Shown piece by piece: positions 372 to 19,901 of a DNA stretch of 57,459 nucleotides. Origin of the DNA: an uncultured Planctomycetales bacterium (lineage in GTDB: Bacteria; Omnitrophota; Gorgyraeia; Zapsychrales; Fredricksoniimonadaceae); assembly GCA_964555945.1 (NCBI GenBank), contig CAZKUL010000001.1, forward strand, positions 1-57,459, written 5' to 3'. Within the stretch, counting starts at the first letter, position 1, and each line of letters starts with the position of its first letter. The notes under the pieces were generated by a model, which worked only from the letters and a program-made list of their open reading frames with translations, ran no database searches and was not told where the DNA came from. The position numbers were made by a program, and so were the translations under genes.

Positions 372-1151
372 CTATTTTTCTTTTGGCTCCCAAGTCCAAT
401 ACAAACCCAAATAAGAAACAGCATTATTTTGACCTGTAAAAGAATGTCCTACAGAGAATAGCAAACTAAAATCTGAAGTAAAATTATACGCCCCCCCAAC
501 GTTAAATAAAGTAAACCCTCTTTCCCCCACATCACTGGCCTCTTGGGCAAAAACTTCTCCACCTAAAGAAAGATGTTCACCAAATTCGCGTTGTACAAGC
601 AATCCTCCAAAGCCATAATTACGCGTACCAGGACTATCATTTAATGCATATCCGCCACCACCATCAACAGTCCAATCACCCCAGCTTTTTTGCAACCACA
701 CCGGGAGTTTATACCATGTCCTACCGTTACCTAGACCTCTGTCAGTATCTCCTGTAGGAAGTTCAAGGGCAGGAAAAATTGCAATCTGTGGACGATAATC
801 TGTTTCTGTAAGGAATCGGTACTTCGCCCCTACTTCCATGTCTCCGATACCGTAATGACTAAGATCATCTTGTGGTGGAGAATAGTATTCAAGAGGTGCT
901 ATTACGTGTAACTGTAAATTAGGCGATGCCCCATAATTATACTCTACAGCTGGTCCTTGGATAGTATTAGAGTCATTCGTTTTATCCACAGTGGAGAATA
1001 GGTATACTTCCTGATGTTTATAATCTACCGTCTCAGGGTCATCTGTTAAAAATGGTGACCCAGCCAATGCCGAAGTAGACAATAGCAGGTTAAATAGAAA
1101 CAGCACTAAAAAGGGGGAATATTTTTTAAAATAAATATTCTTCTTAGTCAT
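372..1151 (-). CDS. outer-membrane beta-barrel, MetA-pathway/phenol-degradation-type hydrophobic-compound transporter family
   Basis: 259-aa ORF with a signal peptide (..LLLSTSALA). Has GSPFLTDDPETV, GIGDMEVGAKYRF and LELPTGD..GLGNG motifs plus alternating beta-strand pattern and a C-terminal aromatic residue, as in this OMP family. Confidence 0.6.
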   Translation of the reverse strand: MTKKNIYFKKYSPFLVLFLFNLLLSTSALAGSPFLTDDPETVDYKHQEVYLFSTVDKTNDSNTIQGPAVEYNYGASPNLQLHVIAPLEYYSPPQDDLSHYGIGDMEVGAKYRFLTETDYRPQIAIFPALELPTGDTDRGLGNGRTWYKLPVWLQKSWGDWTVDGGGGYALNDSPGTRNYGFGGLLVQREFGEHLSLGGEVFAQEASDVGERGFTLFNVGGAYNFTSDFSLLFSVGHSFTGQNNAVSYLGLYWTWEPKEK

Positions 1152-1237
1152 GGCAATGATAATACCATAATCTAAAATCTTGTCGATAAGTTGTAATACT
1201 CTGGGAATGCCTTAATGGTTCTTGCTGCAGAAAACGA

Positions 1238-1555
1238 CTATTGCTTTACCGTTACACCTTTAAAATCTTCAACTTTACCTATCTGTTTTAAATACTCAGC
1301 TATTTTACTAATGTCGTTTTTGGTAGGAACATCCGCTACCCCAGCGTCATTAATCGCTTTCTTTACTGTTTGGCCATAAGCATTCCAAGGGTGATGCCAT
1401 GGGTAAACAGCCATATGGCAATTTATGCATTTAAGTTGCGCTTCAGGATAATCTTTTTTATAAGCTTTCATCACGATTGAATCTGCGTGTGCCATGTTAC
1501 TTAAACCGAAACCTAATAATATCTCCAATGAAAACACTAAACTTTTAATTGTCAT
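1238..1555 (-). CDS. small periplasmic monohaem c-type cytochrome
   Basis: 105-aa ORF with a signal peptide and a single CxxCH haem-binding motif (CINCH). Confidence 0.6.
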   Translation of the reverse strand: MTIKSLVFSLEILLGFGLSNMAHADSIVMKAYKKDYPEAQLKCINCHMAVYPWHHPWNAYGQTVKKAINDAGVADVPTKNDISKIAEYLKQIGKVEDFKGVTVKQ

Positions 1556-1575
1556 ATCTTATCCTTTCCAATTTT

Positions 1576-2334
1576 TTATTTCCTTTTTAACTGCATTAAA
1601 TTTTCTTTTGTAAAAAATGAATCAGGAATATCCATTCTTTGTATTTCCTTGTAATCCATCACTGAGCATTGATCATTAATAACTCCATCTTTTATAACTA
1701 AGCGAGAAGGTCGCATTTCGCCTGCCAATGCTTTATAGTCCTTATAAAAACAAACTGTTAAGAATCGTCCGCTAACCGCATAAAATTCTGCTTTCAAAGG
1801 CCAAAAATTATCAAAGGCAACCCATAATAAAATCCTGCCATAGGTGGCATTTTTATTTTTAGGGGTTAATTCCAGCTCCTCATATTCCTTGCCATCTATC
1901 TTCTCATGACGAACAATATTTGCATTGTAATCATAAGAAAAACATGTTCTTGCAATATCGCCATTAGCAACATCTCCTGTCATTCTTTCTTGTAACGACA
2001 AGTGTATCGGTTTTGAAACCTGTGGAAAGAACGCCATAAAATCCTGACCGTGCATTAAAAGACATATTCCGTGCTCCCTTTTTGGCTCTAGAGTCCTAAC
2101 AACAGTGTTCTCACGTCCCTTAATAAAAAGCTCATAAGTACTCGTATGTATAGGGCGATTTGGTTTATAGGAAGTAACAGATACTACTAACCGATAATCA
2201 AAATCAGGACTTCTAATATCATCAACTTTTCGAAGGATTTCATTGGCCGTTAGTTCTGTCTGTGCCCAGCTTTTTCCTAATAATAAAATAAGACATCCTA
2301 CTAAAAATAAACCTGCGATGCTTTTTTCTAACAT
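1576..2334 (-). CDS. LolA-like outer-membrane lipoprotein-sorting protein family
   Basis: 252-aa secreted protein (signal peptide ..GKSWA). Its length and its position directly downstream of an FtsX-type ABC permease/ATPase pair are typical of LolA-like partners. GGAG Shine-Dalgarno upstream. Confidence 0.55.
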   Translation of the reverse strand: MLEKSIAGLFLVGCLILLLGKSWAQTELTANEILRKVDDIRSPDFDYRLVVSVTSYKPNRPIHTSTYELFIKGRENTVVRTLEPKREHGICLLMHGQDFMAFFPQVSKPIHLSLQERMTGDVANGDIARTCFSYDYNANIVRHEKIDGKEYEELELTPKNKNATYGRILLWVAFDNFWPLKAEFYAVSGRFLTVCFYKDYKALAGEMRPSRLVIKDGVINDQCSVMDYKEIQRMDIPDSFFTKENLMQLKRK

Positions 2335-2346
2335 AAATACTCCGAC

Positions 2347-3615
2347 CTATCGATTCCTCAACGCTTCTGTAATTACTAATCGTGATGCCCTATATGCAGG
2401 ATAAAAAGCAGATAGCCCTCCTATGAGTATTGAAAAAATAAACGTGGAAAATAAAATTCTGGGGACAATCATAGGGTGAGACAACCATCCGACATTTCCT
2501 CCTGGCGGCGGGGGCATAGTAATGCCAATACAGGACACTATACGCACGATTGCACACCCTAAAATAACACCCAGAACGCCTCCTATAAACCCTAATCCAA
2601 TGCCCTCATAAAGAAATAGGACAACAACCCCTTTACTTCTGCTCCCCATAGCCATGATCGTTCCAATCTCACTGATCCTTTCCATCACTGACATACTCAT
2701 GGTGTTAAAAATACTCAAAACAACTACAATAAATATGATCACTTTCATGATCAAATAGAATTTCTTAAACAAATTAACAGTTTGTGTATAGAATTCCGTC
2801 AGTTCATCCCATGTCTTCATTTCTAAATCAAAATGCTTTTCTTGGAAAAGGGATTTTAATTTATTCTTAACTTCTTGTGTGTCGTCAGTATGATGCAGCT
2901 TTATCAACAAAGATTGAACAGATTCGGTATTAAGAAATTTTTGTGCTGTTTCCAAAGGCATTCTTAAAAAAAATTCATCAAAGTCTTTAGAAGATGTATA
3001 AAACACACCCCTGATCTTCATATCCAACGCTGTGGGAGAACCATCAACAGTATTCGTTAATAACGTAACAGTCGAATGAGCCTTAGCATCTATGCCAGCA
3101 GCAAGCCCTGCGCCTAAAATAACCCCATACTCATCATTACTATCAAGGCCTCGACCAGTCTTTAAAGTGGTCACCCCCTGCTTGACTCCTTCTTTATATG
3201 CTTTTCTCAAATCTGCTACTGCTTCTTTCGACAAAGTCCTTTCATAGCGAGGGTCCACCCCTTGTCCAATAAAAGAGACTGTATTGTTCCCCGTACTTAA
3301 AAGGCCGGAAAATTGAATGCGCGGCGTCACATAATTAACTTCCGGCAATTGACGTATTACCGATATTACTTCACCACTATTCTCAATTAAGTAATTAAAA
3401 GGGTCCGTCCTCCCTTTTTGATTGAATCCTATTTTATAAACTTGAATATGCCCGGTTTGCGCTTCAATAAAACCTTCTCTTAATTGTAAAAAGACATCTT
3501 CAAAAAAACCTCCTATAAAAATAATAGCCACACAACCAAAAACAATCGTCGAGATGGTTATTAAAGATCTCGTTCTATGACGGAAAATATTGCGGACGGC
3601 TAATTTCAAAATCAT
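2347..3615 (-). CDS. ABC transporter permease, FtsX/MacB-type with large periplasmic domain
   Basis: N-terminal TM, roughly 250-aa periplasmic domain, then 3 C-terminal TMs (FtsX fold). Start moved to MILKLAVRNIF (ATG 3615), which overlaps the ATPase stop as TAATG. Confidence 0.8.
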   Translation of the reverse strand: MILKLAVRNIFRHRTRSLITISTIVFGCVAIIFIGGFFEDVFLQLREGFIEAQTGHIQVYKIGFNQKGRTDPFNYLIENSGEVISVIRQLPEVNYVTPRIQFSGLLSTGNNTVSFIGQGVDPRYERTLSKEAVADLRKAYKEGVKQGVTTLKTGRGLDSNDEYGVILGAGLAAGIDAKAHSTVTLLTNTVDGSPTALDMKIRGVFYTSSKDFDEFFLRMPLETAQKFLNTESVQSLLIKLHHTDDTQEVKNKLKSLFQEKHFDLEMKTWDELTEFYTQTVNLFKKFYLIMKVIIFIVVVLSIFNTMSMSVMERISEIGTIMAMGSRSKGVVVLFLYEGIGLGFIGGVLGVILGCAIVRIVSCIGITMPPPPGGNVGWLSHPMIVPRILFSTFIFSILIGGLSAFYPAYRASRLVITEALRNR

Positions 3616-4283
3616 TATTTTATTTCCCCATCCCAAATCTTGACGACACGGTCTGCCTGATCTATTATCTTTTGATCGTGCGTTGAGAAAATGAACGTGG
3701 TTTTATTTTCCCGATTCCTCTTTTTCATCAATGCAATGATCTCCTCACCTGTCTTATGGTCAAGGTTAGCTGTCGGCTCATCAGCCAATATAAATAAAGG
3801 GTCACGAACAATAGCTCTTGCGACAGCTACCCGTTGTTGCTGCCCCCCGCTTAATTCCAGGGGCTTATGTTTTGCAAAATCTGACAACCCAACCATAGAC
3901 AAAGCTTCTTCGGCCTTTCTTCTTTTTTCTATCAGAGACATTGGTTTGAATAAAAGAGAATATTCAACATTTTCAATAGCGGTCAGCACAGGGAAAAGAT
4001 TGAAATTCTGAAAAACAAAACCGATCTTCTGGGCCCGGACATCGGCAAGTTCATTAGGGGTCATGTTTATAATCTGTTGCCCGTCAACAAACACTTCCCC
4101 TGAACTCGGTTTATCAATACATCCCACGATATTAAGAAGAGTTGTTTTGCCGCTGCCTGAAGGGCCAGCTATAACCAAAAACTCTCCCTTATTGATTTTG
4201 AGATTGACTCCCTTTAATACTTCAACAGATATTTCATTCAAAGAGTAATCCTTAAATAAATTATTTACTTCAATAAGATGCAT
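3615..4283 (-). CDS. ABC transporter ATP-binding protein (LolD/MacB-like)
   Basis: Walker A GPSGSGKTT, ABC signature LSGGQQQRVAVARA, Walker B FILADEPT. Confidence 0.9.
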   Translation of the reverse strand: MHLIEVNNLFKDYSLNEISVEVLKGVNLKINKGEFLVIAGPSGSGKTTLLNIVGCIDKPSSGEVFVDGQQIINMTPNELADVRAQKIGFVFQNFNLFPVLTAIENVEYSLLFKPMSLIEKRRKAEEALSMVGLSDFAKHKPLELSGGQQQRVAVARAIVRDPLFILADEPTANLDHKTGEEIIALMKKRNRENKTTFIFSTHDQKIIDQADRVVKIWDGEIK

Positions 4284-4312
4284 TTGTTTTCCTAATGGCT
4301 GATATAAAAGGT

Positions 4313-5671
4313 CTATACTATCGTCCGGGTAACCACTCCCAGAGCTTCACTCCATAATGTATCTGAAGTATGGATCATGTCTGTTACTTCGGTCATTGAC
4401 TTAACAAAATAATCGAGCTGGTCAGACGTCGTGACCAAAGGCGGGACGACCTTAAGGACCATAAAATCATTGCCGCAGATCTGAGTTAAAATTCCCTTCT
4501 CTCGAAAAAGCTGCATAACCAAAATCTGGCCGAAAATTGCAGGATGAATATGTTTGATAGTTTCAAAAGATATCTTACGGCGCAATTGCTTTGGTGCCTG
4601 CCACTCGATCCCGGTGAACATCCCTATCCCACGAACGGTCTTAAACATCTCATATGGGGCCAGAGCCGTACTCAGACGTTCCCGCATATTTGCTGCTAAA
4701 GCGGCACTTCTTGAGCCCCATCCTTCAGTCTCCAACACATCGAGCGTGGCAAGTACCGCACGCATGGATAGGACATTTTCACTAAAAGTCGAAGCATGAA
4801 TATTGGCTCTTTTTAAAGAACTGTAAACTGCATCTGAAATCTTTTCTGACATCAAAACTGCCCCAACTGGCACAAAACCTCCACTCAAGGCCTTAGCTAA
4901 GACAACCATATCCGGCTGGACATTATAATGATGAGCAGCCAAAAACGGTCCTGTTCGCCAAACGCCTGTCTGTACTTCATCAAGTACGAAAAATGTCCCA
5001 TAGCGATGACATAATCGTTGAACTTCTTGTAGATAATTCCCCTCCGGCAAAAGAATTCCGGCTTCAGACTGCATAGGTTCAAGGATAAAGGCAGCAAATT
5101 TTTTGGTCTTCAATTTCTCTTCTAAGGCCTTTAGATCATTAAAAGGAATTGCTTCTGTATCCGGCAACAAAGGGCCAAAACCTTCCCGCCACAAAGGATC
5201 ACCCATCAATGACAGAGCACCACAAGTCAATCCATGAAAAGCACCATGGCAATAAAGCAATCCAGCTCGCTTGGTATACGCCCTTGAGAATTTGATCACA
5301 ATCTCAACACCTTCACTGCCGGAATTGCAAAATACGACGCGCTTCAACTGCCCGCCAGACAACGCACATAGACGTTGAGCGGCCATCCCAGCCAATTCCG
5401 GCACATGGCTCTGTAGCATGACCGGACCTTTCCGATCCAGCTCATTTTTTAAGGCAGCAATAATCGATGGATGGTTGTGACCTGCATTGTACACACAAAA
5501 ACCTGACAAGAAATCCAGGATACGACGAGCATCAGAAGTAAATAACTCCGTTCCTTCGCAACGCTCATACTGAACGTTCATCTGCAAAAGATCTAAAAGA
5601 CGCACCCACTGTGGATTGATATGCGAAGCATATGCACCCGCTTTTGATCTCTCCGATACAGCTTGTTCCAT
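4313..5671 (-). CDS. class-III PLP-dependent aminotransferase (acetylornithine/putrescine aminotransferase-like)
   Basis: 452 aa with SGSEG, DEVQTG and PLP-lysine context VLAKALSGG. AGGGAG Shine-Dalgarno upstream. Confidence 0.85.
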   Translation of the reverse strand: MEQAVSERSKAGAYASHINPQWVRLLDLLQMNVQYERCEGTELFTSDARRILDFLSGFCVYNAGHNHPSIIAALKNELDRKGPVMLQSHVPELAGMAAQRLCALSGGQLKRVVFCNSGSEGVEIVIKFSRAYTKRAGLLYCHGAFHGLTCGALSLMGDPLWREGFGPLLPDTEAIPFNDLKALEEKLKTKKFAAFILEPMQSEAGILLPEGNYLQEVQRLCHRYGTFFVLDEVQTGVWRTGPFLAAHHYNVQPDMVVLAKALSGGFVPVGAVLMSEKISDAVYSSLKRANIHASTFSENVLSMRAVLATLDVLETEGWGSRSAALAANMRERLSTALAPYEMFKTVRGIGMFTGIEWQAPKQLRRKISFETIKHIHPAIFGQILVMQLFREKGILTQICGNDFMVLKVVPPLVTTSDQLDYFVKSMTEVTDMIHTSDTLWSEALGVVTRTIV

Positions 5672-5692
5672 TCCATTGTCTCCCTTTGCAAC

Positions 5693-6256
5693 TCAACTAT
5701 TCATAAATCCAATGTTATACTGCACAGCAACTTCATCACTCACATGAATAAGCCCCAAAATACTAGGGGGCTTGAGTCCATAGTCTTTTAAATGAATAAG
5801 CATTTGCCCCTCACACATAAGGGTATCCCCCTCCATATGACCTTTTGATATCAGTGTTACAGGATGAGAAATGTTATGCATGGTCATAATGCCTGTGAAT
5901 TTAATCTCCCCGACTTGATTTTCAATAATTTTCGTAATATCCGTATCATTAAAAACGAAATGAATCTGTGGATATAGAGACGCATTAAACATCTGATACA
6001 TATTTTTATCACGCCCAGGTTCATCTGTTGTAAAACTAGCAACATCTACATCGACAAAACCTTTCGCTAAATTTAGTTTTTTCTCAAGAATTCCAGATAA
6101 TTTTCGTGCCGATCCATTAAAATCATGCAAGGTTGATTTACACATAAAACCGAGCCTACTTTTTTCTGACACAACATGCCATTGTCCAGATGCTTGAACA
6201 TATCCGCCACCAAACACAAATAATATAAATAAAAAAATCTTAAGAAATCTCGACAT
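5693..6256 (-). CDS. YceI-family periplasmic lipid/polyisoprenoid-binding protein
   Basis: 187 aa with a signal peptide and a YceI-like pattern (SRLGF..KSTLHDFNGS..., TDEPGRDKNM, HNISHPVTL). First gene after motif copy 1. Confidence 0.7.
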   Translation of the reverse strand: MSRFLKIFLFILFVFGGGYVQASGQWHVVSEKSRLGFMCKSTLHDFNGSARKLSGILEKKLNLAKGFVDVDVASFTTDEPGRDKNMYQMFNASLYPQIHFVFNDTDITKIIENQVGEIKFTGIMTMHNISHPVTLISKGHMEGDTLMCEGQMLIHLKDYGLKPPSILGLIHVSDEVAVQYNIGFMNS

Positions 6257-6349
6257 AAAAATTCTCCTTATAAGTTAACTTATTACAGCTTATCAATTGA
6301 TGGATATTTGATGTAGAGAAAAGCTATTGTGGAAGCACAAATGAAGGAA

Positions 6350-6393
6350 GAAAATTGCAGTTATGGACTTAAACCCTGCAAAATTTTTCAGGG
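6350..6393 (-). promoter_or_regulatory. triple-TGCA promoter/operator module, copy 1 (upstream of the YceI-ABC-OMP operon)
   Basis: Minus strand reads CCCTGAAAAATTTTGCAGGG-N13-CTGCAATTTTC. It shares core sequence and 10/21-bp spacing with copies at 14220, 17996 and 20412. Confidence 0.6.
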
Positions 6394-6412: not shown

Positions 6413-7153
6413 TTAAGGTTTTGATATATAAAAAGATGCTAGTATTCTTCTATAGAAAGGATTAACGACCTTGATATAAATATCCTTTCGTCGTCTTTCA
6501 GAGGGACGCTCAATACTCACATGTGTCAAAAAGTGTTTACTAAATCGCAAGTCAGGCATGTTTATTTTATTTTGTAAATCAATCCATTCTTGCGAAGACA
6601 AGGCAGCCAAAATTGATTTAAGATATTCTTCCTTCATCGTTCTATTGTAATTGATACCAAGGATATTTACACAAATGGCGTTCATGAATTTTGAATGTCT
6701 GACTAGATCCCTGATGATGATTGCCCCATCGATCTTCACAACGCGTTTTATTTCAGAAAGCATCTCTTCAGGCTGAGGCAAGTGATGGAGCATATTTTGA
6801 CAAAAAACAGCGTCAAACGTTCTATCATCAAAGGGCAGCCCTTTCGCATCTCCTTTAATAAAATTAATTTTGTTCGAAACCCCCTCCCTAGATGCATTGC
6901 GGGATGCAAATTTAAGCATCTCATCTGAAAGGTCAATAGCAGTAACCTGAACATTGGAGGTGTTCTTGGCGACCAATATAGCATCCCAACCCGTACCTGT
7001 ACCGATTTCAAGAAACTTCCCTTCAGAAGGACTAAGATTTATCACAGTTTCTGCAAAGCCTGCATGAACTATATTCAAATATCTACCTACAACCAGATCA
7101 TAGGCAACCACTTCTTCTGTAGAAGTCATGACTTCTTTTTTAAAAATTCTCAT
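6413..7153 (-). CDS. class I SAM-dependent methyltransferase
   Basis: 246 aa with SAM motif I LEIGTGTG and post-I acidic residue. Last gene of the T3PKS operon. Confidence 0.8.
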   Translation of the reverse strand: MRIFKKEVMTSTEEVVAYDLVVGRYLNIVHAGFAETVINLSPSEGKFLEIGTGTGWDAILVAKNTSNVQVTAIDLSDEMLKFASRNASREGVSNKINFIKGDAKGLPFDDRTFDAVFCQNMLHHLPQPEEMLSEIKRVVKIDGAIIIRDLVRHSKFMNAICVNILGINYNRTMKEEYLKSILAALSSQEWIDLQNKINMPDLRFSKHFLTHVSIERPSERRRKDIYIKVVNPFYRRILASFYISKP

Positions 7154-7179
7154 ATAGTTACATTTTTAATTTAAAATAA

Positions 7180-9636
7180 TCATGTTTTTTGAAAATTCAT
7201 CCGCGACTGCCATATAAAGCAAATTGTTAAATACAAAAAAGATGCAATTAACAACAAGGAAGAAAAACCAATAAACCTACTTAAAAAAATACTCATAGCG
7301 CTACCGACAATGGTCATATAGCCATTAAACCCCCAAGCCCAGGGGATTAAGTTTCTTTCGTAAACACCAAGACTTTTTAATCCTTCCGGAAAAAACATTC
7401 CTAGAAAGAATCCAATTGGTAAAATTAACACCAAGGATATCATCAATTTAAAAGGTAAATGCATCGACAAACAGTGCTGAATTAGCCAATGATTGAAGAA
7501 AAAATATAAATTTAAAATAGAAAATACAATTAAAGATACTCTCTTGATATTTAGATAACCTTGACTAAATAAATAATCTGAACACAAACTACCGATAGCA
7601 GTCGATATCAGCAAGCTCATTAAAACCACAGAAAAAGAATATATAGGATTACCCAATAAAAGTGTCAATGCTTGCATAATGGCTATTTCAGTAAATACAA
7701 AACCAAGACCAATAGTAGAAAAATAGACCAAGAACCGAGAAAGATTTTCTCCAGCAGAAGTTTTTATATTAAATATTAATGGATAAATAATAAGCACAAG
7801 ACCTATGACCAGCAACCCAATGGTAAAAAGCAGCACAGATAAATTAAACACAACCTGCCTAGTCGAATCATTCCAGTTTCCGAATATGACTTTCTTCCAT
7901 AGGTCTTTACTAAAGATACTCTGTATAAGAAATCCATTATCAATAAAGGGAGCATTATCCGTAGGTATCGATAAATCTTCATTGTATTGGTAGCTGGCAT
8001 CTTTAAGAAAATGATTCAGATTCTTGCTTTTTAATATATTCTCAAATAATTTGAAATCTTTATAGGTATAAAAAGGATTATAAATACTCATCCATCCCAT
8101 ACGAGATACATTTCTCTCAACTATAGAAACTTCATCTCTGGAAAAATCAGTATTTTTAATCAATAAGAATAAAGCATCTGTGCCGAAAAACATCTTCTTT
8201 TGAGTTATGCCATCTTTCACATCCTCCTGGGGGGCTATAACAATTACCTTATTAGCAACATGATCATATCCTAGCTCCTCCAAAGCCGCACGAGCCAGAG
8301 CTGTAATCTTTAGCTTTCTGCCGTAGGCAACACCTATTGTTCCACCTGGATTTAAATGCTTAAAATAGCTCTTGAAAGCCTCTTTTGTATATAGATATTG
8401 AGTTGTAGCACCGGAAACCCCTAGGTATTGGGAAGCTGAAGCCCCTCCGTATGAAAGAATGATGGAATCGAATTTTTTATCTATTGACTCAACATAACTA
8501 CGCCCTTCCTGCACAATCAAATGAACATTTTTCTTAGCAAAGAAATCAGTTAAATGATATCCTTCAACATCTTTTGCCATCTTGACTACAATTGGATTTA
8601 ACTCAACCCCCGTAATATCCGATATGCCTTTGGAATAACTATAGGCCTCTACCATATCCTTCCCTGCTCCAGCCATTAAAATTAGGATGTCCTGAGGATT
8701 TTTTAATAAAAAACCTAATGTTGTGGGCTGAAAATAACTAAACAATTTTAAATAAAAAGGATCTTCTTTCATAAATGGGTAAATATATCCTTCCCCATTG
8801 ATGATAGAAAACGCATAAATATTATGATTACTCTTTGTTGTGCTATCGACAAACAATGAAGCTCTTGAATATGCATTCCATTGATGCCATGATTCCTTAA
8901 AATCCATACCTTTTATTTTAGTGACATCAGCGATTTTCATTTTAACTTCAAGAAAATCTGTTTTAATATTAATGAGCAAAATAGTTACACAAGTTAACAA
9001 GAAAAATACAGCCGTTATTTTTCTCCATTTATCTTCATAAGTTGCCAATAATAAAATTATTAAAAAAGAAAAAATGGCCAATAAGATTAAAACCGAACTC
9101 AACTGAAAATAATTTAAACTAAAAGTACCAAAAATGCACCCGATTGAAGCCCCTAATAAATCAAAGAAATATATCCTGGAGGTATCTTTTGAATAAAATT
9201 TATAAATAAGAGAATAAAGTACACCAAGACAAAAAAAGATAATGGTAGAAATTAAACCAACCGTGAGTGAACTGCTCATTGTTTTTATTAAAAGTCGGTT
9301 CCAATAAACATCTCCCATTTTCAACGAATTTATGCCCCCAAATTCTAATCGCGCATTTACGCAATGAAAATTACTTATTGCCATGGTAAAAATAAGTAAT
9401 AAAACTCCTAAAAGGCAAAGATATTCAAAAGCCTTTGATTGAAGCCCTTCAACTGATTCTTTAAAATAAAATATGGACACAAATATCCCTGCTAAACTTA
9501 AACCCAAGAATGCGAAAGATATGGCAAAAAATGGAGAAAAGAAGAGTGCGGATAGCAAAACAGCTAATAACAATTCTAAAGATAAAAAAATAAAACTTAG
9601 AGAGAATGTCAGTAAATAAACTGAATTTGAACTCAT
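7180..9636 (-). CDS. polytopic membrane protein with embedded spermidine-synthase-like (SAM/dcSAM Rossmann) domain
   Basis: 818 aa. About 7 N-terminal and about 6 C-terminal TM helices flank a soluble domain with ILILMAGAGKDMVEA...GVELNPIVV, resembling fused MFS/spermidine-synthase architectures. Confidence 0.6.
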   Translation of the reverse strand: MSSNSVYLLTFSLSFIFLSLELLLAVLLSALFFSPFFAISFAFLGLSLAGIFVSIFYFKESVEGLQSKAFEYLCLLGVLLLIFTMAISNFHCVNARLEFGGINSLKMGDVYWNRLLIKTMSSSLTVGLISTIIFFCLGVLYSLIYKFYSKDTSRIYFFDLLGASIGCIFGTFSLNYFQLSSVLILLAIFSFLIILLLATYEDKWRKITAVFFLLTCVTILLINIKTDFLEVKMKIADVTKIKGMDFKESWHQWNAYSRASLFVDSTTKSNHNIYAFSIINGEGYIYPFMKEDPFYLKLFSYFQPTTLGFLLKNPQDILILMAGAGKDMVEAYSYSKGISDITGVELNPIVVKMAKDVEGYHLTDFFAKKNVHLIVQEGRSYVESIDKKFDSIILSYGGASASQYLGVSGATTQYLYTKEAFKSYFKHLNPGGTIGVAYGRKLKITALARAALEELGYDHVANKVIVIAPQEDVKDGITQKKMFFGTDALFLLIKNTDFSRDEVSIVERNVSRMGWMSIYNPFYTYKDFKLFENILKSKNLNHFLKDASYQYNEDLSIPTDNAPFIDNGFLIQSIFSKDLWKKVIFGNWNDSTRQVVFNLSVLLFTIGLLVIGLVLIIYPLIFNIKTSAGENLSRFLVYFSTIGLGFVFTEIAIMQALTLLLGNPIYSFSVVLMSLLISTAIGSLCSDYLFSQGYLNIKRVSLIVFSILNLYFFFNHWLIQHCLSMHLPFKLMISLVLILPIGFFLGMFFPEGLKSLGVYERNLIPWAWGFNGYMTIVGSAMSIFLSRFIGFSSLLLIASFLYLTICFIWQSRMNFQKT

Positions 9637-10289
9637 AAAGATGCCAACTTGTGAGTCCGTTCGTTTAAATACTCGTATACAGTTGCTAAATCAAATAACT
9701 CAATACAGGCAAGATTATGTTTCTTAAAATATTCTAAAAGGGTATCTTTAGCGAAAACAATATCCGCCTCCTTGGCAGCACAAATGTCCGATCTGCCATC
9801 ACCTATATAAACGATTGGGTTCTGCTTTGAATGGGTATCATCCATAAAATGCACTTTCTTACAATGTGCACAAAATGAACAATTAGGATTTTGATGAGGA
9901 AAAGATGGAAAAACTCTGTCCTTATAAAACTTTAAATGATTAGCATGAATTTTAAAATCTTTAATGCCATTATTCTCTAAAATTATATCAATGACGGGTC
10001 CAAAATTATCACTAACAATACAGGACTCTATTTCTCTGCTTCGCAAAAAACTAATTAACATTGAGAAATAAGGATCGATTTTAACCGTTTTTAAATATTT
10101 AATAAGCTCCTGTCTAGAAATTCTCACCCCCTTCATCTGTCCCCTCAGACACTCTTTGGTACTAATCTCACCTAATTGCCAGTCTTTTTCCAAAACCATC
10201 CAGTCATCACTAATTGAATAACGCTCAATCATTTCATTTAGAACATCACCCTTAGTCACAGTATTGTCAAAATCAATGAAAACACGCAT
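9633..10289 (-). CDS. HAD-IB family phosphatase (MtnX-like)
   Basis: DxDxT motif at the N-terminus (FIDFDNTVT), GDGRSD motif, Cys-rich insert CSFCAHCKK. ATGA overlap with the downstream gene. Confidence 0.7.
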   Translation of the reverse strand: MRVFIDFDNTVTKGDVLNEMIERYSISDDWMVLEKDWQLGEISTKECLRGQMKGVRISRQELIKYLKTVKIDPYFSMLISFLRSREIESCIVSDNFGPVIDIILENNGIKDFKIHANHLKFYKDRVFPSFPHQNPNCSFCAHCKKVHFMDDTHSKQNPIVYIGDGRSDICAAKEADIVFAKDTLLEYFKKHNLACIELFDLATVYEYLNERTHKLASL

Positions 10290-10299
10290 ATGATTTATC

Positions 10300-11079
10300 C
10301 TATCTAGCTTCTTGCATGAAATGCACTAAAGGCAAAATAATGCATTGTGGAAGAAAACGTACATTTATTGCCATTAACCTATTTAAAAAACCATGAACGG
10401 CAACAGTTTGTCCTTGTAACATCACCTTATACCCATAATGAGCAACCTCCTTAGGATCAGGAAGTGTTTGACCGTTTGTTAAACGAATTTCTTGGGGGAA
10501 GGTCGATATTTGAAAATTAGTTGCTGTTGGTCCGGGACATAAACATGTGACACTTACTCCAGTACCCTTTAATTCCTCAGAGATTGCTGATGAAAATGAC
10601 AGAATATATGCTTTTGTGGCATAATAAACAGACATTAAAGGACCAGGCTGAAAAGCCGCCGTTGAAGCCACATTCAATATTTTCCCTTTTCGGCGTTTGA
10701 CCATTCCAGGCAAAAAGAGTCGTGCTAAATTCGTCAAAGCAACAATATTTAGTTGTAACATTCGACCTTGCTTTTCCAAGTTTGAATCAACAAATTGCCC
10801 CCAGTCTCCTATTCCGGCATTATTTATGAGAACATCTACTTCTAAATTATTCCTTTTGATCTGTTCATAGACATACCCACAAGCCCCAGACTTCGATAAA
10901 TCACAAGCAATGACGTACACTTGGACTTTGTAAGTTAAGTATAAATAATCCCTAATTTCATCCAATTTAGATTTAGTGCGGGCTATAAGAATAAGATCGT
11001 ATTTATTCTCAGCTAATATTTTGGCGAATTCAAACCCTATACCATTGGAAGCCCCTGTGACAAGAGCTATTTTACTCAT
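10300..11079 (-). CDS. short-chain dehydrogenase/reductase (SDR)
   Basis: TGASNGIG cofactor motif, NNAG, catalytic YATKAY (YxxxK). Start moved to MSKIALVTGAS, which overlaps the stop of the upstream small ORF (ATGAGTAA). Confidence 0.85.
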   Translation of the reverse strand: MSKIALVTGASNGIGFEFAKILAENKYDLILIARTKSKLDEIRDYLYLTYKVQVYVIACDLSKSGACGYVYEQIKRNNLEVDVLINNAGIGDWGQFVDSNLEKQGRMLQLNIVALTNLARLFLPGMVKRRKGKILNVASTAAFQPGPLMSVYYATKAYILSFSSAISEELKGTGVSVTCLCPGPTATNFQISTFPQEIRLTNGQTLPDPKEVAHYGYKVMLQGQTVAVHGFLNRLMAINVRFLPQCIILPLVHFMQEAR

Positions 11080-11197
11080 TCGTATCGCCTGCATTGAGAG
11101 TTTCTTGACCATAAATACCCATCACAGACGCTAAAACAAGAACAAATATTGAAAATATAAAAATGATACCTGCTATAGATATGATTGCTAATTTCAT
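11072..11197 (-). CDS. 41-aa single-TM peptide (unannotated small ORF)
   Basis: AAAAGGAGACGAT-ATG Shine-Dalgarno. Product MKLAIISIAGIIFIFSIFVLVLASVMGIYGQETLNAGDTNE. Sits between two operon genes with its stop overlapping the SDR start. Confidence 0.45.
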   Translation of the reverse strand: MKLAIISIAGIIFIFSIFVLVLASVMGIYGQETLNAGDTNE

Positions 11198-11210
11198 ATC
11201 GTCTCCTTTT

Positions 11211-11963
11211 TTATTTCTTACCAATTTGTTGGGCAACCCCGCCTAACATATAATGCCTGTCATAAATATTTTTAAAACCTTCCCTAAACATCATTTGCAT
11301 AATTTCTTTGGAATCTGAGAAATATCTATTGGATATGCTTAAATAAGCAAAGGAATTATATTCATTACGATGAAAAAAAACCTTTCCCAGCCATGGCATT
11401 AATCTTTCATAATAAATTTGATAAAGAATTTTCTGCCATTTGCCTTCCGGCTTTCCTAAATCTAACGTGGTAAATATCCCGCCTGGTTTTAGTACCCGAT
11501 GCATTTCTTTAAGACCCAACGAAATATCCTTTAAATTACGAAGGCCAAAACACATCATAATGGCATCAAAGGTGTTGTCCTCAAATGGCAATTCCAAAGC
11601 GCTGGCCTCGTAAAAACTGATATTATTTAATTCCAGCTGATTGACCTTATTCTTGGCTAACGATAACATCTCTTCTGCAACATCTACCGCATCAATATGC
11701 AACCCCTTGCATCGCTGACTCATATAAATGGCCATATCCCCGCTTCCGGTACAGACATCCAACACCCTCATGCCCCGCTTTAAATTTAAACTACTAATAG
11801 AGGCATCTCTGTACTCTTGCTGCTGGCCTAAAGAAATAACATCATTAAGTTGATCGTATTTAGGAGCTAATTGATTAAAAAATAATTTGTTAGCTTCTTC
11901 CCAGGAATCTGTATGAAAATACTTATCAAAACCAACCTGTTTCATTATTTCCATATCTTTCAT
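11211..11963 (-). CDS. UbiE/MenG-type SAM-dependent methyltransferase
   Basis: LDVCTGSGD motif I and a UbiE-like N-terminus (FDKYFHT..). Start placed at MKDMEIMKQV after the AAAGGGA Shine-Dalgarno, 13 nt past the PKS stop. Confidence 0.75.
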   Translation of the reverse strand: MKDMEIMKQVGFDKYFHTDSWEEANKLFFNQLAPKYDQLNDVISLGQQQEYRDASISSLNLKRGMRVLDVCTGSGDMAIYMSQRCKGLHIDAVDVAEEMLSLAKNKVNQLELNNISFYEASALELPFEDNTFDAIMMCFGLRNLKDISLGLKEMHRVLKPGGIFTTLDLGKPEGKWQKILYQIYYERLMPWLGKVFFHRNEYNSFAYLSISNRYFSDSKEIMQMMFREGFKNIYDRHYMLGGVAQQIGKK

Positions 11964-11976
11964 AGCAATCCCTTTC

Positions 11977-13011
11977 CTATTCTGACCAGCGTAAACAGGC
12001 CGCATTTACACTAACCCCTGCCCCATAACTAACCATTAACGCAGGTGTTCCATCTATAAATTTTGTCGTATCCATCCATCGTTTTAGGATAAATAAAACA
12101 CAGGGGGACGACATGTTTCCATATTCAGAAAGAACATAACGGCTTGCCATTAGAGATGTAGAGTTTATATTTAATTCCTGTTGTAAGGTATCTAAAATCA
12201 ACCGCCCACCAGGATGAAAAACTAAAATATCAGGCAATTGAGTTATTTGCATCCGTGCCAAAAGTTCTTTAACACCTTGGGCTACAATTTGAGGGACATC
12301 CTTTCCTAAAACATTGTTCAATCTGGAATTGACAGTCTTGAATCTCAATTGTTCTCTGTGTTCTGGCACCAGCAAACATCCATGCCGTTCTAATTGCCAA
12401 CCTGGTTTTTTACAATTAGTAACTATGCAAGCGGCTGCCCCATCCCCAAAAATGGAATTTGATAGTATTAAATCAATAGCTTCCCCATGAACAAAAGTTG
12501 CAGACGACACTTCAACCGCAATAAATAAAACATTTGCATTTTTCTTCGTTAATAAAAATTGATCGGCAATACGTAATCCTGGCACCGCTGCACCACATCC
12601 GTGACCAACAACATCCAGTATGAATATGTCTGGACTGATGCCCAATACTTCCCCTACATGCGATGTTAATCCAGGGCACAAATAGCCGGTGCACGTTGTA
12701 ATAATTAGTCCATCAATTTGCCCAATCCCAAGGCCTACGGCTTTAAGGCATTTTTGAGCAGCTTGGACAGCCAACTCAGTTGCCATTTTTTCAAATCGAA
12801 AGACAGATTCATCGCAATTCTCAGTGGCTAACACCTCCATACTATCTAAAGCAAATGTCCGGGAACGAACTCCATCGTCAGAAAGGAAGCGATTATAGAA
12901 TTTCTTACTTCGCTCAGAGTAGTTTTGGAACCTCATTAATTCGATTAACTCTTTTTGATCCTTGCGTAATGAAGGATTTGCCGTTTCTACACAGGTAATT
13001 CTAGACTTCAC
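11977..13011 (-). CDS. type III polyketide synthase (chalcone-synthase superfamily)
   Basis: 344 aa with Cys-His-Asn triad contexts VGHGCGAAVPG, VFHPGGRLILD and YGNMSSPCVLFIL. Confidence 0.9.
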   Translation of the reverse strand: MKSRITCVETANPSLRKDQKELIELMRFQNYSERSKKFYNRFLSDDGVRSRTFALDSMEVLATENCDESVFRFEKMATELAVQAAQKCLKAVGLGIGQIDGLIITTCTGYLCPGLTSHVGEVLGISPDIFILDVVGHGCGAAVPGLRIADQFLLTKKNANVLFIAVEVSSATFVHGEAIDLILSNSIFGDGAAACIVTNCKKPGWQLERHGCLLVPEHREQLRFKTVNSRLNNVLGKDVPQIVAQGVKELLARMQITQLPDILVFHPGGRLILDTLQQELNINSTSLMASRYVLSEYGNMSSPCVLFILKRWMDTTKFIDGTPALMVSYGAGVSVNAACLRWSE

Positions 13012-14149
13012 TTAATACCCCCTTCGCATATACAATCTTGTTTTTTGTAACCCTTGGGCGAGAATAGCTCATCGCTGTTCGCCTAAACATCTTATTGATA
13101 TCTAAAAAACGAATTATCGCATCTGCAACCCAAGGAAAATGTGCAACACGACCAAATAAATCAGCCAGACGTCGTTGTTCCCCGAAATGCTTCTGATATT
13201 CATCAGTGTATGCCTTAAGCCTTTCGGCGTCATGGTTATATGTCGTTATTGACTGAGCTAATAATTGACCGCTTTGTAAAGCCACACTGATTCCGACACC
13301 CATCACGGTATCAATAAACGCAGACGAATTACCGACACGCCATATACCATTTTCATAATGAACAATTGAATGTCGTACCTGAATTTGAATAGCCTTCCAA
13401 GGAGATACCCTTGTGGCCCCAATCATTACATTCTGCAAATGTGAGCTCTCCTTGATCCAACCCATCAGCACCTTTTCAGGATCTTGCCCTTTAGCTTTAA
13501 AATATTTAGAGTCTACTACATAACAGACATTGACTTGGTTCTTTTCAAATGGATTGATACCAACATGCCCGCCCTCACAGCAATGAAGCATCACCCGTTT
13601 AAATGATTGAGGAATCCCCTGATAGATGGCGCAAATACCAAATTGAATTTTTGTTAATTTTACCGATGGAGAATGCTGGCCACTAGCATCAATAAGATGG
13701 CGAGTTCGCAAATTAAATTCTTTATTATTTCCATAATGGTCAACCGTTACTTCAAATCCGTTGCCATTGTTGTATATATTCCGAGCCTGAGCCCCCTCAT
13801 ACACCTCAATGCCCATTGCCTTAACACGATCTAACAATAGCGAATCAAATACCTTTCTACTTACCCCTAATGCTTCACCTTCTATCGGTATGACTGTACT
13901 TGCCCCCTTAGAGGATGTAAGTAACGACTCCTCAATAACGCGAGCCCCTTCTTCCAAAAGTTTTGACCAAATCCCTAAATCAAATAACATTGCTTTATTT
14001 TCAGGACCAATAAAACCACCGCATGTCTTGTGCCGAGGGAATGCCGATTTATCAATAATAACAACCTTCCATCCACGCTTCGCTAAACCTAAAGCACAGG
14101 ATGTCCCAGCTGGTCCTGCGCCAATAATTAATGCTTCAACTGTTGTCAT
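13001..14149 (-). CDS. FAD-dependent oxidoreductase/hydroxylase (geranylgeranyl-reductase-like fold)
   Basis: N-terminal dinucleotide fold IIGAGPAGTSCA...VVIIDK. 382 aa. First gene after motif copy 2. Confidence 0.8.
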   Translation of the reverse strand: MTTVEALIIGAGPAGTSCALGLAKRGWKVVIIDKSAFPRHKTCGGFIGPENKAMLFDLGIWSKLLEEGARVIEESLLTSSKGASTVIPIEGEALGVSRKVFDSLLLDRVKAMGIEVYEGAQARNIYNNGNGFEVTVDHYGNNKEFNLRTRHLIDASGQHSPSVKLTKIQFGICAIYQGIPQSFKRVMLHCCEGGHVGINPFEKNQVNVCYVVDSKYFKAKGQDPEKVLMGWIKESSHLQNVMIGATRVSPWKAIQIQVRHSIVHYENGIWRVGNSSAFIDTVMGVGISVALQSGQLLAQSITTYNHDAERLKAYTDEYQKHFGEQRRLADLFGRVAHFPWVADAIIRFLDINKMFRRTAMSYSRPRVTKNKIVYAKGVLSEV

Positions 14150-14219
14150 GAAAACAGTTTATCAAGAGGCCAAGCACTTCAGATAGATGAAAATCATGAT
14201 AAAGACAAAAATTAGGGAA

Positions 14220-14263
14220 GAAAATTGCAGATTCAAACAAAAACTATGCAAAATCTTGCAGGG
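14220..14263 (-). promoter_or_regulatory. triple-TGCA promoter/operator module, copy 2 (upstream of the T3PKS operon)
   Basis: Minus strand reads CCCTGCAAGATTTTGCATAG-N13-CTGCAATTTTC, with TGCA cores starting 10 and 21 bp apart. Lies 70 nt upstream of ATG 14149. Confidence 0.6.
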
Positions 14264-18046: not shown

Positions 18047-18586
18047 TTAAATGCCATATTTCTTAAGCTTATACCAGAGATTACGTTCGGAAATTCCTAA
18101 TAAACGTGCAGCTTCTGCTTTCACACCATGAGCGGCATTGAGGGCTTTTTGGATAGCTTCTTTTTCTTTTAAACCTACTTGAGATTGTAGATCAAAATCA
18201 TTCGCTGAAGACTCCTTTTTGTTCGACACTTTCTCCATTGCTTTTTTGACAGATTGAACAAGCTCATCGACGCTAAAAGGTTTTCGTATATAATCACAAG
18301 CGCCATGTTTTAAAGTTTTAACAGCGGTATCAACATCCGCATGAGCAGTAGTCACAACAATAGGTAATTTGATTCCCAAACGTTCCATTTCATAAATAAG
18401 CTCTACCCCATCCATGACAGGCATCCGTATATCGGTCACAACAACATCAATCTTTTTATCAAATAAAAATTTCAATGCTTCCTGCCCATTGGATGCCGTC
18501 AAAACATTAAAACCATGCTCAGGCAATCCTAACCTCAAGACGCGCAGCAGGCGAGGTTCATCATCAACTATTAACATTTCAAACAT
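18047..18586 (-). CDS. response regulator, REC + Fis-type HTH (NtrC-like but lacking the AAA+ sigma54-activation domain)
   Basis: REC domain (LIVDDEP..., VVTDIRMP, KPF) joined directly to a C-terminal HTH_8-like segment (EKEAIQKALNAAHGVKAEAARLLGISERNLWYKLKKYGI). Start at MFEMLIVDD, 1 nt after the kinase stop. Confidence 0.85.
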   Translation of the reverse strand: MFEMLIVDDEPRLLRVLRLGLPEHGFNVLTASNGQEALKFLFDKKIDVVVTDIRMPVMDGVELIYEMERLGIKLPIVVTTAHADVDTAVKTLKHGACDYIRKPFSVDELVQSVKKAMEKVSNKKESSANDFDLQSQVGLKEKEAIQKALNAAHGVKAEAARLLGISERNLWYKLKKYGI

Positions 18587-18587
18587 A

Positions 18588-19901
18588 TTATTTTCCCATA
18601 GGTAGATGTATTGTAAAAGCTGTTCCATGAGGAGGAGGATTGCTAACCTCAATTCTTCCTCCGTGATCCTCAATAATGCGTTTGACCACAGTTAATCCTA
18701 TCCCGAAACCATACGGTTTAGTCGTGTACATCAAATCAAAAATCTTTTGCTTTTCTTTGGGATCTAATCCGCTTCCATAATCCCGTACCTGCAACATAAA
18801 CTCTTGTCCTACGACCATCATAGCGATTTCAATGGTATTATTTTTACTAGAGGCTTCAATAGCGTTAAGCAATAAATTCATTAATACCTGTTTGATTGCT
18901 TCAGGATGACAAGGCAAAAGTACTCCAGTCGCTTTATTATAAACGTCTAGCCTTAAATCTGCCGCACGTATTTTTGAAGCAAACAATTCAGTTACCCTTA
19001 AAACCAATGCTGATACATCTGTTGAAACCTTGGGTTTATTATCCCCACGGCGTAGATGCAATAAATCAGTCAGTAATCCATCAACCCGTTCGACTTCTGA
19101 AGATATATCTTCAGCTAAAGTAAGAACCTCTCCTGTCGAGCGTTTGGCAATCACACTGGCAGCACTTTTAACTATCCCCAAAGGATTACGGATTTCATGG
19201 GCAAGCTGCTGAACCAAGGTCACGGAAGCTATTTGTCGTTCTTGCTCCATTAACTGCTTTGTTTGTCTTTGCAATACCTTAATACTATAGGTACTTATTC
19301 CAAGTAAAAGTAAAGTAACTATTGCAATAAAATATACCCCTCCACTCTCCACTTTATATCGAGCTTTTTTAGCTTTGCCTAAAGAAACCTTAATACTATC
19401 AAAATAAAATTGACGTAATGGTTGGCTTGCTTCCTGTAATTGATCTAATGAATAAATTAATGAGGAAGTCGTTTTAGGTGTGGGCTTGGGGTGTAGAGTA
19501 GCAATCGTTTTAGTCAAATCAAGAAAAGCCTGACGTGCGGGGACAAGCAAATGTGCTTCTTGTTGCTCATGGCTGAGTAAATCTACTATTTTCTCTTCTT
19601 CTTGCTCATTTCGGGACCACGATGATAATATGTGGATTAACTCATTAGATTTTAATTTTAATTGGGTGACAGGTAGCATCCCTGCCTGCCAAGCACTGAT
19701 ATCCGTTGATATTTCTTTAAGGACATCCTCGGCAATAACCATGCGTTGGTATTCTTCCCATTCGTCCTCAAATTGAAGTTGATAAAGACGAATTCCATCA
19801 AGATAATGCAGTCCGATTCCGCCTGCAATGGCAATAGCAAGTCCAAGTATCACAAAAGCTGATGTTATTTTATTGGTTAATTTTAGGTAATATGATTTCA
19901 A
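18588..19901 (-). CDS. sensor histidine kinase
   Basis: Two TM segments flank a periplasmic/coiled region. H-box LAHEIRNPL and HATPase N/G boxes (LLLNAIEAS, DYGSGL, GFGIGL). Confidence 0.85.
   Translation of the reverse strand: MKSYYLKLTNKITSAFVILGLAIAIAGGIGLHYLDGIRLYQLQFEDEWEEYQRMVIAEDVLKEISTDISAWQAGMLPVTQLKLKSNELIHILSSWSRNEQEEEKIVDLLSHEQQEAHLLVPARQAFLDLTKTIATLHPKPTPKTTSSLIYSLDQLQEASQPLRQFYFDSIKVSLGKAKKARYKVESGGVYFIAIVTLLLLGISTYSIKVLQRQTKQLMEQERQIASVTLVQQLAHEIRNPLGIVKSAASVIAKRSTGEVLTLAEDISSEVERVDGLLTDLLHLRRGDNKPKVSTDVSALVLRVTELFASKIRAADLRLDVYNKATGVLLPCHPEAIKQVLMNLLLNAIEASSKNNTIEIAMMVVGQEFMLQVRDYGSGLDPKEKQKIFDLMYTTKPYGFGIGLTVVKRIIEDHGGRIEVSNPPPHGTAFTIHLPMGK

Follow-up and report, generated by a model that had tools for sequence, protein, structure and literature searches.

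Apart from the Lol, Lpt and Mla systems, little is understood, to our knowledge, of how Gram-negative cells bring small hydrophobic natural products and non-canonical lipids from their inner membrane to the outer one. In Anabaena, a MacB/FtsX-type ATP-binding cassette (ABC) exporter, DevBCA-HgdD, handles a heterocyst glycolipid derived from a polyketide synthase (PKS) and a fatty acid synthase (FAS), and it does so with the membrane-fusion protein (MFP) DevB and a TolC-like duct. Aryl-polyene clusters carry the transport genes ApeL (LolA-like), ApeM and ApeN, proposed to localize the product to the outer membrane (PMC8253772), and in the AmeABCD system of Castellaniella defragrans a DUF1302 protein and a member of the LolA superfamily accompany a resistance-nodulation-division (RND) pump (PMC6394551). 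As for biosynthesis, the type III PKS operons srsABC, pkqABC and hidABC lead from alkylresorcinol to alkylquinone (PMC9927152, PMC10896814), and the type III PKS operon of the planctomycete-like 'Saltatorellus ferox' holds a gene for a lipid/isoprenoid-binding protein (PMC10896814). We analyzed a stretch of 57,459 nucleotides (hereafter the window) from an uncultured member of the Omnitrophota, in which a unit of seven genes lies next to a type III PKS operon. These genes encode a YceI-type protein, a class-III aminotransferase, an ABC ATPase with its permease, a LolA-like protein, a small secreted CxxCH protein and an outer-membrane barrel.

An earlier note on this DNA had read the seven genes as an operon that could export the phenolic lipid made by the PKS operon. 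All seven open reading frames (ORFs) are present in the window at the coordinates given in that note, on the minus strand from 6256 to 372, and the operon directly upstream does encode a type III PKS. Pfam matches above the gathering score bear out the naming of the YceI protein, the ATPase, the MacB/FtsX permease, the LolA-like protein, the MetA/phenol barrel and the aminotransferase. We consider it fairly probable that the seven genes, far from being an independent transporter operon, are a distal arm, with its own promoter, of a single type III PKS lipid cluster, and that their products finish and export the lipid. Functional coupling of the unit to the PKS operon, as the note had proposed, is strongly supported by comparative genomics together with a shared operator.

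Orthologous clusters were compared by tblastn and gene calls. In locus L191, whose type III PKS is 93% identical, all 13 genes form one string: FAD oxidoreductase, type III PKS, UbiE, SDR, HAD, methyltransferase, YceI, aminotransferase, ATPase, permease, LolA-like, CxxCH and barrel, with gaps of -11 to 29 nt plus one of 86 nt, and with 18 nt between the methyltransferase gene and yceI. Locus L190 starts with a histidine kinase and a response regulator, goes on with FAD oxidoreductase, PKS, UbiE, SDR, methyltransferase, YceI, aminotransferase, ATPase, permease and CxxCH, and ends in a 367-aa protein; it has no LolA-like gene. In L189 the order is PKS, UbiE, an insertion sequence, SDR, HAD, aminotransferase, methyltransferase, an 841-aa protein, CxxCH and barrel, and the YceI, ABC and LolA-like genes are missing. 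Genome G010 carries kinase, regulator, FAD oxidoreductase, PKS, UbiE, SDR, HAD, aminotransferase and an 818-aa protein before its contig ends, and G001 carries PKS, UbiE, SDR, HAD, aminotransferase and barrel. G009 has a barrel homologue of 41% identity flanking the cluster, next to kinase, regulator, FAD oxidoreductase and PKS. The arrangement of L008 is that of the window, and in L009 the operator is followed by methyltransferase, aminotransferase, ATPase, permease and LolA-like genes and then by mdoGH, the barrel gene being missing. Two more distant Omnitrophota loci, L030 and L031 (PKS identity 40-42%), show the order kinase, regulator, YceI, FAD oxidoreductase, PKS and UbiE.

In eight related loci, genes of the unit are shuffled into the PKS operon or fused with it; every one of the seven is so placed in three or more loci besides the window, in differing combinations. 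The comparison shows that these genes are inherited, and rearranged, along with those of the PKS. Aminotransferase orthologues (81-94% identity) sit inside the PKS operon in G010, where the gene stands between the HAD and 818-aa genes, and in G001, L189, L190 and L191. In G001, L189 and L191, a barrel orthologue (80-85% identity) comes directly after the PKS or aminotransferase genes. The yceI gene lies directly ahead of the FAD oxidoreductase and PKS genes in L030 and L031, and after the methyltransferase gene within one operon in L190 and L191. The CxxCH gene was within the PKS cluster in four of four loci examined, following either the ABC/LolA-like genes or the gene of the 841-aa membrane protein and usually preceding the barrel gene. 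It follows from this interleaving that the two-operon layout of the window is a split form of the single operon found elsewhere, and that YceI, the CxxCH protein and the barrel are each linked to the PKS independently of the ABC transporter.

Three side observations concern the relatives themselves. At L190:10431-11534, where both the LolA-like and the COG4313 genes are missing, the 367-aa protein that follows the CxxCH gene has no Pfam match and may be a replacement envelope component. At L008:1295-2682, genes for a PMT_2-like (GT39/83-type) membrane glycosyltransferase of 392 aa and for an 87-aa ORF are inserted between the HAD gene and that of an 825-aa protein. The insertion sequence of L189, with a DDE transposase, occupies 2161-3138, between the UbiE and SDR genes.

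We next considered the regulation of the two operons. The host genome (G000) comprises 2.88 Mb in 281 contigs and is ~94% complete, the window being its contig C1. The motif TTGCA-N16-CTGCAATTTTnTTC occurs three times in this genome (6347, 14217 and 17996), all within one 12-kb stretch, and was found zero times in shuffles. The full operator module lies at 6346-6393, 14216-14263 and 17995-18032, and a fourth copy at 20408-20459 on the minus strand has a spacer of 17 nt, not 16, between TTGCA and CTGCAA. The operons that bear it are the seven-gene unit, the PKS operon, the operon of a two-component regulator and one further operon. The triple-TGCA module that the earlier note had seen ahead of both operons is indeed shared, but the copy ahead of yceI has only two exact TGCA boxes, its first box reading TGAA. 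The fourth copy precedes the operon in which a 122-aa protein is encoded together with the histidine kinase and the REC plus Fis-HTH response regulator, which suggests autoregulation of the two-component system. The module is kept ahead of the orthologous operons in L008, L009 and G010, and the kinase-regulator pair stands directly upstream of the FAD oxidoreductase and PKS genes in G010, G009, L190, L030 and L031. With this conservation, one local regulon is the simplest reading of the operator distribution, and the four operons that bear the operator are probably governed by the local kinase and REC-Fis pair. We also considered the operator as a sigma-54 promoter and rejected it: TTGCA-N16-CTGCAA does not fit GG-N10-GC, and the REC-Fis-HTH regulator lacks an AAA+ domain.

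The coordinates and assignments are collected below.

Table. Features of the seven-gene unit and of its surroundings in the window.
Feature	Position	Strand	Basis
YceI-family periplasmic lipid/isoprenoid-binding protein (predicted)	5693..6256	-	Pfam YceI (PF04264), 68.9 bits against a cut-off of 23.7; signal peptide ending VQA|S
Class-III (pyridoxal phosphate) aminotransferase, cytoplasmic, PigE-like	4313..5671	-	Pfam Aminotran_3, 289.6 bits
ABC ATPase, LolD/DevA/MacB type	3615..4283	-	Pfam ABC_tran, 121.4 bits
Type VII ABC permease	2347..3615	-	Pfam MacB_PCD, 65.3 bits, and FtsX, 51.7 bits
Soluble periplasmic LolA-superfamily protein, TP_0789-like	1576..2334	-	PF17131, 127.5 bits against a cut-off of 30; signal peptide ending SWA|Q
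Secreted CxxCH (CINCH) protein of 105 aa, probable small c-type cytochrome	1238..1555	-	Sec signal and motif
Outer-membrane beta-barrel, COG4313 / Phenol_MetA_deg	372..1151	-	PF13557, 35.1 bits against a cut-off of 22; 259 aa; signal peptide ending ALA|G
Operator/promoter module heading the seven-gene unit	6346..6393	-	CCCTGAA-N5-TTTTGCA-N16-CTGCAATTTTCTTCC
Upstream biosynthetic operon	6413..14149	-	Pfam and NCBIfam
Histidine kinase and REC-Fis-HTH response regulator	18047..19901	-	Pfam

The genes of the unit are separated, in order, by 21, 29, -1, 12, 20 and 86 nt, and no convincing terminator was found inside it. A sigma-70-like site at 1186-1159 falls within the 86-nt gap, which may hold an internal promoter ahead of the barrel gene. 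The predicted compartments of the products run from the cytoplasm (aminotransferase) through the inner membrane (ABC transporter) and three proteins with signal peptides to the barrel in the outer membrane. The upstream operon encodes an FAD oxidoreductase, the type III PKS, a UbiE-type methyltransferase (205.9 bits, above the TIGR01934 cut-off of 158), an SDR protein, a HAD-IB phosphatase, a membrane protein of 818 aa and another methyltransferase. This neighbouring operon has the PKS, methyltransferase and FAD oxidoreductase core of srsABC, pkqABC and hidABC, and the yceI gene recalls that of 'Saltatorellus ferox'. What sets the locus apart from the described operons is the aminotransferase, the type VII ABC transporter, the LolA-like carrier, the CxxCH protein and the outer-membrane barrel, none of which they carry.

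The ATPase and permease have the domain matches of type VII ABC transporters, the MacB/LolCDE/FtsEX superfamily, with ABC_tran, MacB_PCD and FtsX all above their cut-offs. The translated ATPase carries a Walker A motif (GPSGSGKT), the signature LSGGQ and a Walker B motif (ILADEP). Its two best NCBIfam matches, LolD (229 bits, cut-off 308) and DevA (222 bits), both stay under their cut-offs. The permease consists of TM1, a MacB-like periplasmic core domain and three FtsX transmembrane (TM) helices, in agreement with four hydrophobic segments in its translation, and, since there is one permease gene, it presumably acts as a homodimer. Its ORF is present as the earlier note had it, but its start is most likely the ATG at 3615 (422 aa, as called in relatives) in place of a TTG at 3636, so that it overlaps the ATPase stop by 1 nt. 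No HlyD/MFP domain was found by Pfam among the seven products, and none was seen in the orthologous loci; because the operon has no MFP gene, the architecture is Lol-like, not MacAB-TolC-like.

The LolA-like protein belongs to PF17131 and to the LolA superfamily, both by Pfam and by similarity to a solved structure, since its family profile matches PDB 3BUU (NE2245, 'uncharacterized LolA superfamily protein') at E 8e-95. An LVGC in its signal peptide was rejected as a lipobox, since it falls within the hydrophobic core and the family consensus does not retain it. A literature search on TP0789 returned only a proteome list. Canonical LolA (PF03548) was not detected in the ~94%-complete host genome, in which the lipoprotein chaperone of the lineage may be too divergent to detect, or may have been replaced.

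Compared with LolCDE-LolA-LolB, the locus shares an ATPase, a MacB_PCD/FtsX permease without MFP and a soluble LolA-superfamily protein encoded beside the pump, a layout suited to pulling cargo out of the inner membrane and handing it on to a carrier. It differs in that its scores are far below the LolCE and LolD equivalog cut-offs, its carrier is a TP_0789/NE2245-like PF17131 protein, not PF03548, its acceptor is a beta-barrel (COG4313 here, DUF1302 elsewhere) and not the lipoprotein LolB, and the whole system is embedded in a small-molecule lipid cluster and dispensable in congeners. With DevBCA it has in common a MacB-type pump for a PKS-type lipid, export of which we infer here, and DevA is the second-best NCBIfam match of the ATPase; however, a LolA-fold carrier and a small barrel take the place of the MFP and the TolC-like duct. 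Like the ApeL/ApeM/ApeN set, it would provide the biosynthetic cluster of an outer-membrane lipid with a LolA-like chaperone and a transporter for the inner membrane, but the Ape motor is RND, not ABC, the Ape outer-membrane partner is LolB-like, not a barrel, and the product is a type II FAS-like polyene, as against a type III PKS phenolic lipid. AmeABCD and the generic cassettes described below likewise combine an inner-membrane pump, a LolA-superfamily periplasmic protein and a dedicated barrel for hydrophobic cargo. Ame, though, has an RND pump and a DUF1329 protein, whereas here COG4313 replaces DUF1302, and YceI, the CxxCH protein and the aminotransferase are added.

To trace where the transporter came from, we relied on an alignment-based scan that yielded 80 LolA-like loci from many phyla, whereas a single-sequence search with the LolA-like protein had found no relative. 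The ATPase accompanies the LolA-like gene in 63 of these loci, the permease in 54 and a DUF1302-type barrel in 72; FeeM-type N-acyl amino acid synthases occur in 10, ThiF-nitroreductase genes in 14 and the string LpxB, MsbA, LolA-like, DUF1302 in 7. That the cassette generally travels with lipid-making genes and an outer-membrane barrel supports the export reading. The earlier note had put weight on whether the set co-occurs with type III PKS operons across genomes. For the cassette family it does not, 79 of the 80 loci lacking PKS-cluster genes (the sole exception, L109, is L009); yet the clade found here is PKS-linked in four of four cases and is not independently regulated. A tree of 84 LolA-like proteins places the four PKS-linked copies in a single clade (100 SH-aLRT), nested in an Omnitrophota clade (99) with MsbA-linked and FeeM/DUF1302-linked copies, so that the LolA-like protein descends from ABC plus DUF1302 cassettes. 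This single nested clade points to one recent recruitment of a generic cassette of ABC transporter, TP_0789/LolA-like protein and DUF1302 barrel, in which the COG4313 barrel would have replaced DUF1302. We found no experimental study in the literature that characterizes such a cassette.

The host genome holds three trios of ATPase, permease and LolA-like genes, on C1, C6 and C169/C139. The second, at C6:19070-21879, lies within a region (C6:11264-33209) of at least eight paralogous ~390-aa proteins that carry a FeeM N-acyl amino acid synthase domain, together with a ThiF-nitroreductase fusion, nitroreductase-like proteins, an SDR protein, a DUF4442 thioesterase-like protein and, at its end, a DUF1302-type barrel; beside that barrel is a 440-aa, putatively DUF1329-like protein. 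The region has the look of a cluster for an N-acyl-amino-acid or oxazolone-type lipid, complete with an exporter. The third cassette (C169:461-4098 and C139:2-433) comprises a DUF1302-like barrel of 542 aa, an ATPase, a permease and a LolA-like gene split over two contig ends. In other Omnitrophota (L010, L011, L012 and L110-L118), LolA-like proteins of 51-55% identity are encoded in a string of LpxB, GFO/IDH oxidoreductase, MsbA-type ABC transporter, LolA-like protein and DUF1302 barrel beside rpsB and tsf, which suggests a lipid A or glycolipid-related cargo for this branch.

The barrel matches COG4313 / Phenol_MetA_deg by Pfam, by its signal peptide and by its length (259 aa, where a mature length of ~230-320 aa is expected), and its fold is a predicted one; it has no sequence match to a PDB chain. 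COG4313 channels pass hydrophobic molecules, including the amino-lipid sphingosine (PMC4493636).

The best NCBIfam match of the aminotransferase is the PigE aminotransferase domain (382 bits, E 5e-114), well under the PigE cut-off of 850 and confined to profile positions 377-729, the aminotransferase portion of that model; by this measure the enzyme is PigE-like, not PigE. Since it lies within the PKS operon of relatives, we take it for a biosynthetic gene product of the PKS pathway, acting in tailoring. The YceI protein has weak PDB sequence matches to E. coli YceI (1Y0G) and to TT1927b (1WUB). YceI members with solved structures are lipocalin-like and bind isoprenoids or quinones.

The earlier note had left the aminotransferase and the CxxCH protein unexplained; the former can now be placed in the PKS pathway and the latter in a cluster-specific family. 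Among 5.8 billion proteins, the CxxCH protein has 18 homologues, all at least 62% identical. The motif (C43, C46, H47) is invariant in 11 of 11 aligned homologues, as is a PW.HPWN.YG block (P52-W53-H55-P56-W57-N58-Y60-G61) in the family. Its description as a monohaem cytochrome c is backed by the Sec signal, the invariant CxxCH and two ResB/CcsA haem-attachment loci, but it has no Pfam, NCBIfam, PDB-sequence or fold match: the AlphaFold2 model has a pLDDT of 70, falling below 50 in the haem-loop region, and Foldseek against the PDB gave nothing with an E below 3.8. As the genome encodes ResB and CcsA (System II cytochrome c maturation) twice, haem attachment is possible. We regard the protein as specific to this cluster type and as a putative small c-type cytochrome.

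Directly downstream of the cluster, at L191:10982-19882 and L189:15078-17250, lie genes for small CxxCH proteins (98, 156 and 190 aa), a Rieske protein and cytochrome b. The Rieske/cytochrome b genes follow within 3-5 kb in both loci, and the three further CxxCH proteins and ResB/CcsA are found in L191. These genes look like a bc-type quinol-oxidising module beside a putative polyketide-quinone cluster. In the window, the barrel gene is followed (positions 1-371) by an AT-rich hairpin (~290-330), a 67-aa fragment of a phage-type integrase without either end (45-248) and the end of the contig. Because L191 continues at this point into the Rieske/cytochrome b cluster, whose homologues in the host genome sit on C182, C16 and C50, a mobile-element insertion probably broke the assembly here, and these homologues probably lie just past the contig end. 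The host genome also encodes three UbiA-family prenyltransferases and a second UbiE homologue, and the futalosine marker is absent from it.

A model for envelope-spanning export of the PKS lipid to the outer membrane may be suggested. In the inner membrane, the upstream operon would build a phenolic lipid of the alkylresorcinol or alkylquinone type, and the cytoplasmic PigE-like aminotransferase would turn a carbonyl of the lipid, or of a precursor, into an amine. The type VII ABC transporter, with its LolD-like ATPase and single LolC/E-like permease and without MFP, would then draw the amphiphile out of the inner membrane, from its outer leaflet, and pass it to the soluble LolA-fold carrier, YceI possibly acting as a second periplasmic binder. 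The COG4313 barrel, of a family thought to use a lateral opening for hydrophobic molecules, would let the lipid into or across the outer membrane, and the small CxxCH protein would probably set or read the redox state of the cargo (quinol or quinone) in the periplasm. The ABC transporter and LolA-like protein would be an optional booster, recruited once from a generic lipid-export cassette.

Several observations weigh against this model. The fully syntenic loci all stem from close relatives (70-94% identity), and thus represent few independent events. In 80 more distant type III PKS loci (33-46% identity), no permease, LolA-like, barrel or aminotransferase gene was found within 10 kb. The ABC/LolA-like pair is absent from three PKS-bearing congeners, G001, G009 (94% complete) and G010, which have only a permease of 25-28% identity, presumably that of the housekeeping Lol system; the LolA-like gene is missing in L190 and the barrel gene in L009. 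With parts absent in this way, the export route is not an obligatory unit and the ABC/LolA-like pair is an optional add-on. Finally, the characterized COG4313 members, TcpY and SphA, are uptake channels and not exporters (PMC4493636).

TcpY and SphA may also be taken to mean that the barrel and YceI import hydrophobic precursors, such as fatty or aromatic starters, or else the ABC/LolA-like pair may be an efflux system for a membrane-toxic phenolic lipid, with no targeted delivery to the outer membrane in either case. MacB-type pumps are often found in resistance, and that some variants of the cluster have the ABC/LolA-like pair and others do not would fit an accessory, fitness-tuning role. 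However, type VII ABC transporters extract or export and do not import, and the barrel is the partner most constantly linked to the biosynthetic genes, even where the ABC transporter is missing (G001, L189), which would be odd for precursor import in an acyl-CoA-fed pathway. Moreover, in the 80 loci the cassette is nearly always accompanied by its own outer-membrane barrel, and often by lipid-synthesis genes, which fits delivery better than detoxification; we thus hold self-protection or uptake to be quite improbable. Far more improbable still is a chance neighbourhood, in which a paralogous lipoprotein-sorting (Lol) or general envelope operon landed by the PKS operon on a mobile island, although the top NCBIfam matches of permease and ATPase are LolCE and LolD, PF03548 LolA is not detected in the genome and an integrase remnant lies at 45-248. 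The permease scores 112 bits against a cut-off of 362 for lolCE (TIGR02212), and neither it nor the ATPase (LolD model TIGR02211) reaches the LolCDE equivalog thresholds, while a far better LolCE candidate, at 337 bits near the threshold, is encoded on contig C52. In addition, the genome has three copies of the cassette, while no TP_0789-like protein was found at E <= 1e-5 in 40 relatives of the same genus, family and order. On these grounds we rejected the cassette as the housekeeping Lol system, and the interleaving with PKS genes elsewhere and the common operator largely refute a chance neighbourhood.

A respiratory role deserves separate attention, although we regard it as rather unlikely. 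Here the cluster would make a polyketide quinone that carries electrons, with YceI and the CxxCH protein as its periplasmic partners in quinone binding and electron transfer. The ABC transporter, LolA-like protein and barrel would insert the quinone into the outer membrane or let it out as an electron shuttle, with no structural or protective layer involved. The solved YceI-family structures, being those of isoprenoid and quinone binders, are in line with this, as are the Rieske and cytochrome b genes that trail the cluster in L191 and L189 and the ResB/CcsA and three CxxCH genes of L191. The combination of type III PKS, UbiE-family C-methyltransferase and FAD oxidoreductase also matches the alkylquinone logic of pkqABC and srsABC (PMC9927152; PMC10896814). 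Yet the Rieske/cytochrome b adjacency is seen only in close relatives within one genus and may be inherited synteny, an inner-membrane respiratory quinone requires no exporter, and the aminotransferase and HAD phosphatase fall outside known polyketide-quinone pathways. The UbiA-family prenyltransferases and the second UbiE homologue, moreover, leave room for an isoprenoid quinone. We keep delivery of a finished PKS lipid to the outer membrane as the preferred reading.

A bolder proposal, which we offer as speculative and unlikely in its entirety, joins the two. A redox-active polyketide quinone or aminolipid would be moved to the outer membrane or the cell surface by a Lol-like conveyor, from the ABC transporter through the LolA-fold protein or YceI to the COG4313 barrel, and with the cluster-specific mini-cytochrome c and the Rieske/cytochrome b module it would form a lipid-based electron conduit or shuttle across the cell envelope. 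The cassette would then, more widely, amount to a cargo-agnostic 'small-lipid Lol pathway', its substrate depending on the biosynthetic genes attached to it: here a type III PKS lipid, on C6 lipids of the FeeM/Oxz-type N-acyl amino acid kind, and in other Omnitrophota, beside MsbA/LpxB, a lipid A-related cargo.

What is new in this locus is the tie to a type III PKS, the COG4313 barrel in place of DUF1302, the CxxCH protein specific to the cluster, and a set of naturally occurring variants without single parts. The locus ties a widespread pump-carrier-barrel cassette to a defined, heterologously expressible pathway, with a type III PKS core whose known products are alkylresorcinols and alkylquinones. 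It thereby gives the cassette a concrete cargo hypothesis, and the natural variants with and without each transport part make a ready comparative series. All together, these results suggest that polyketide quinones or phenolic lipids of the Omnitrophota act in the cell envelope, and not only in the cytoplasmic membrane.

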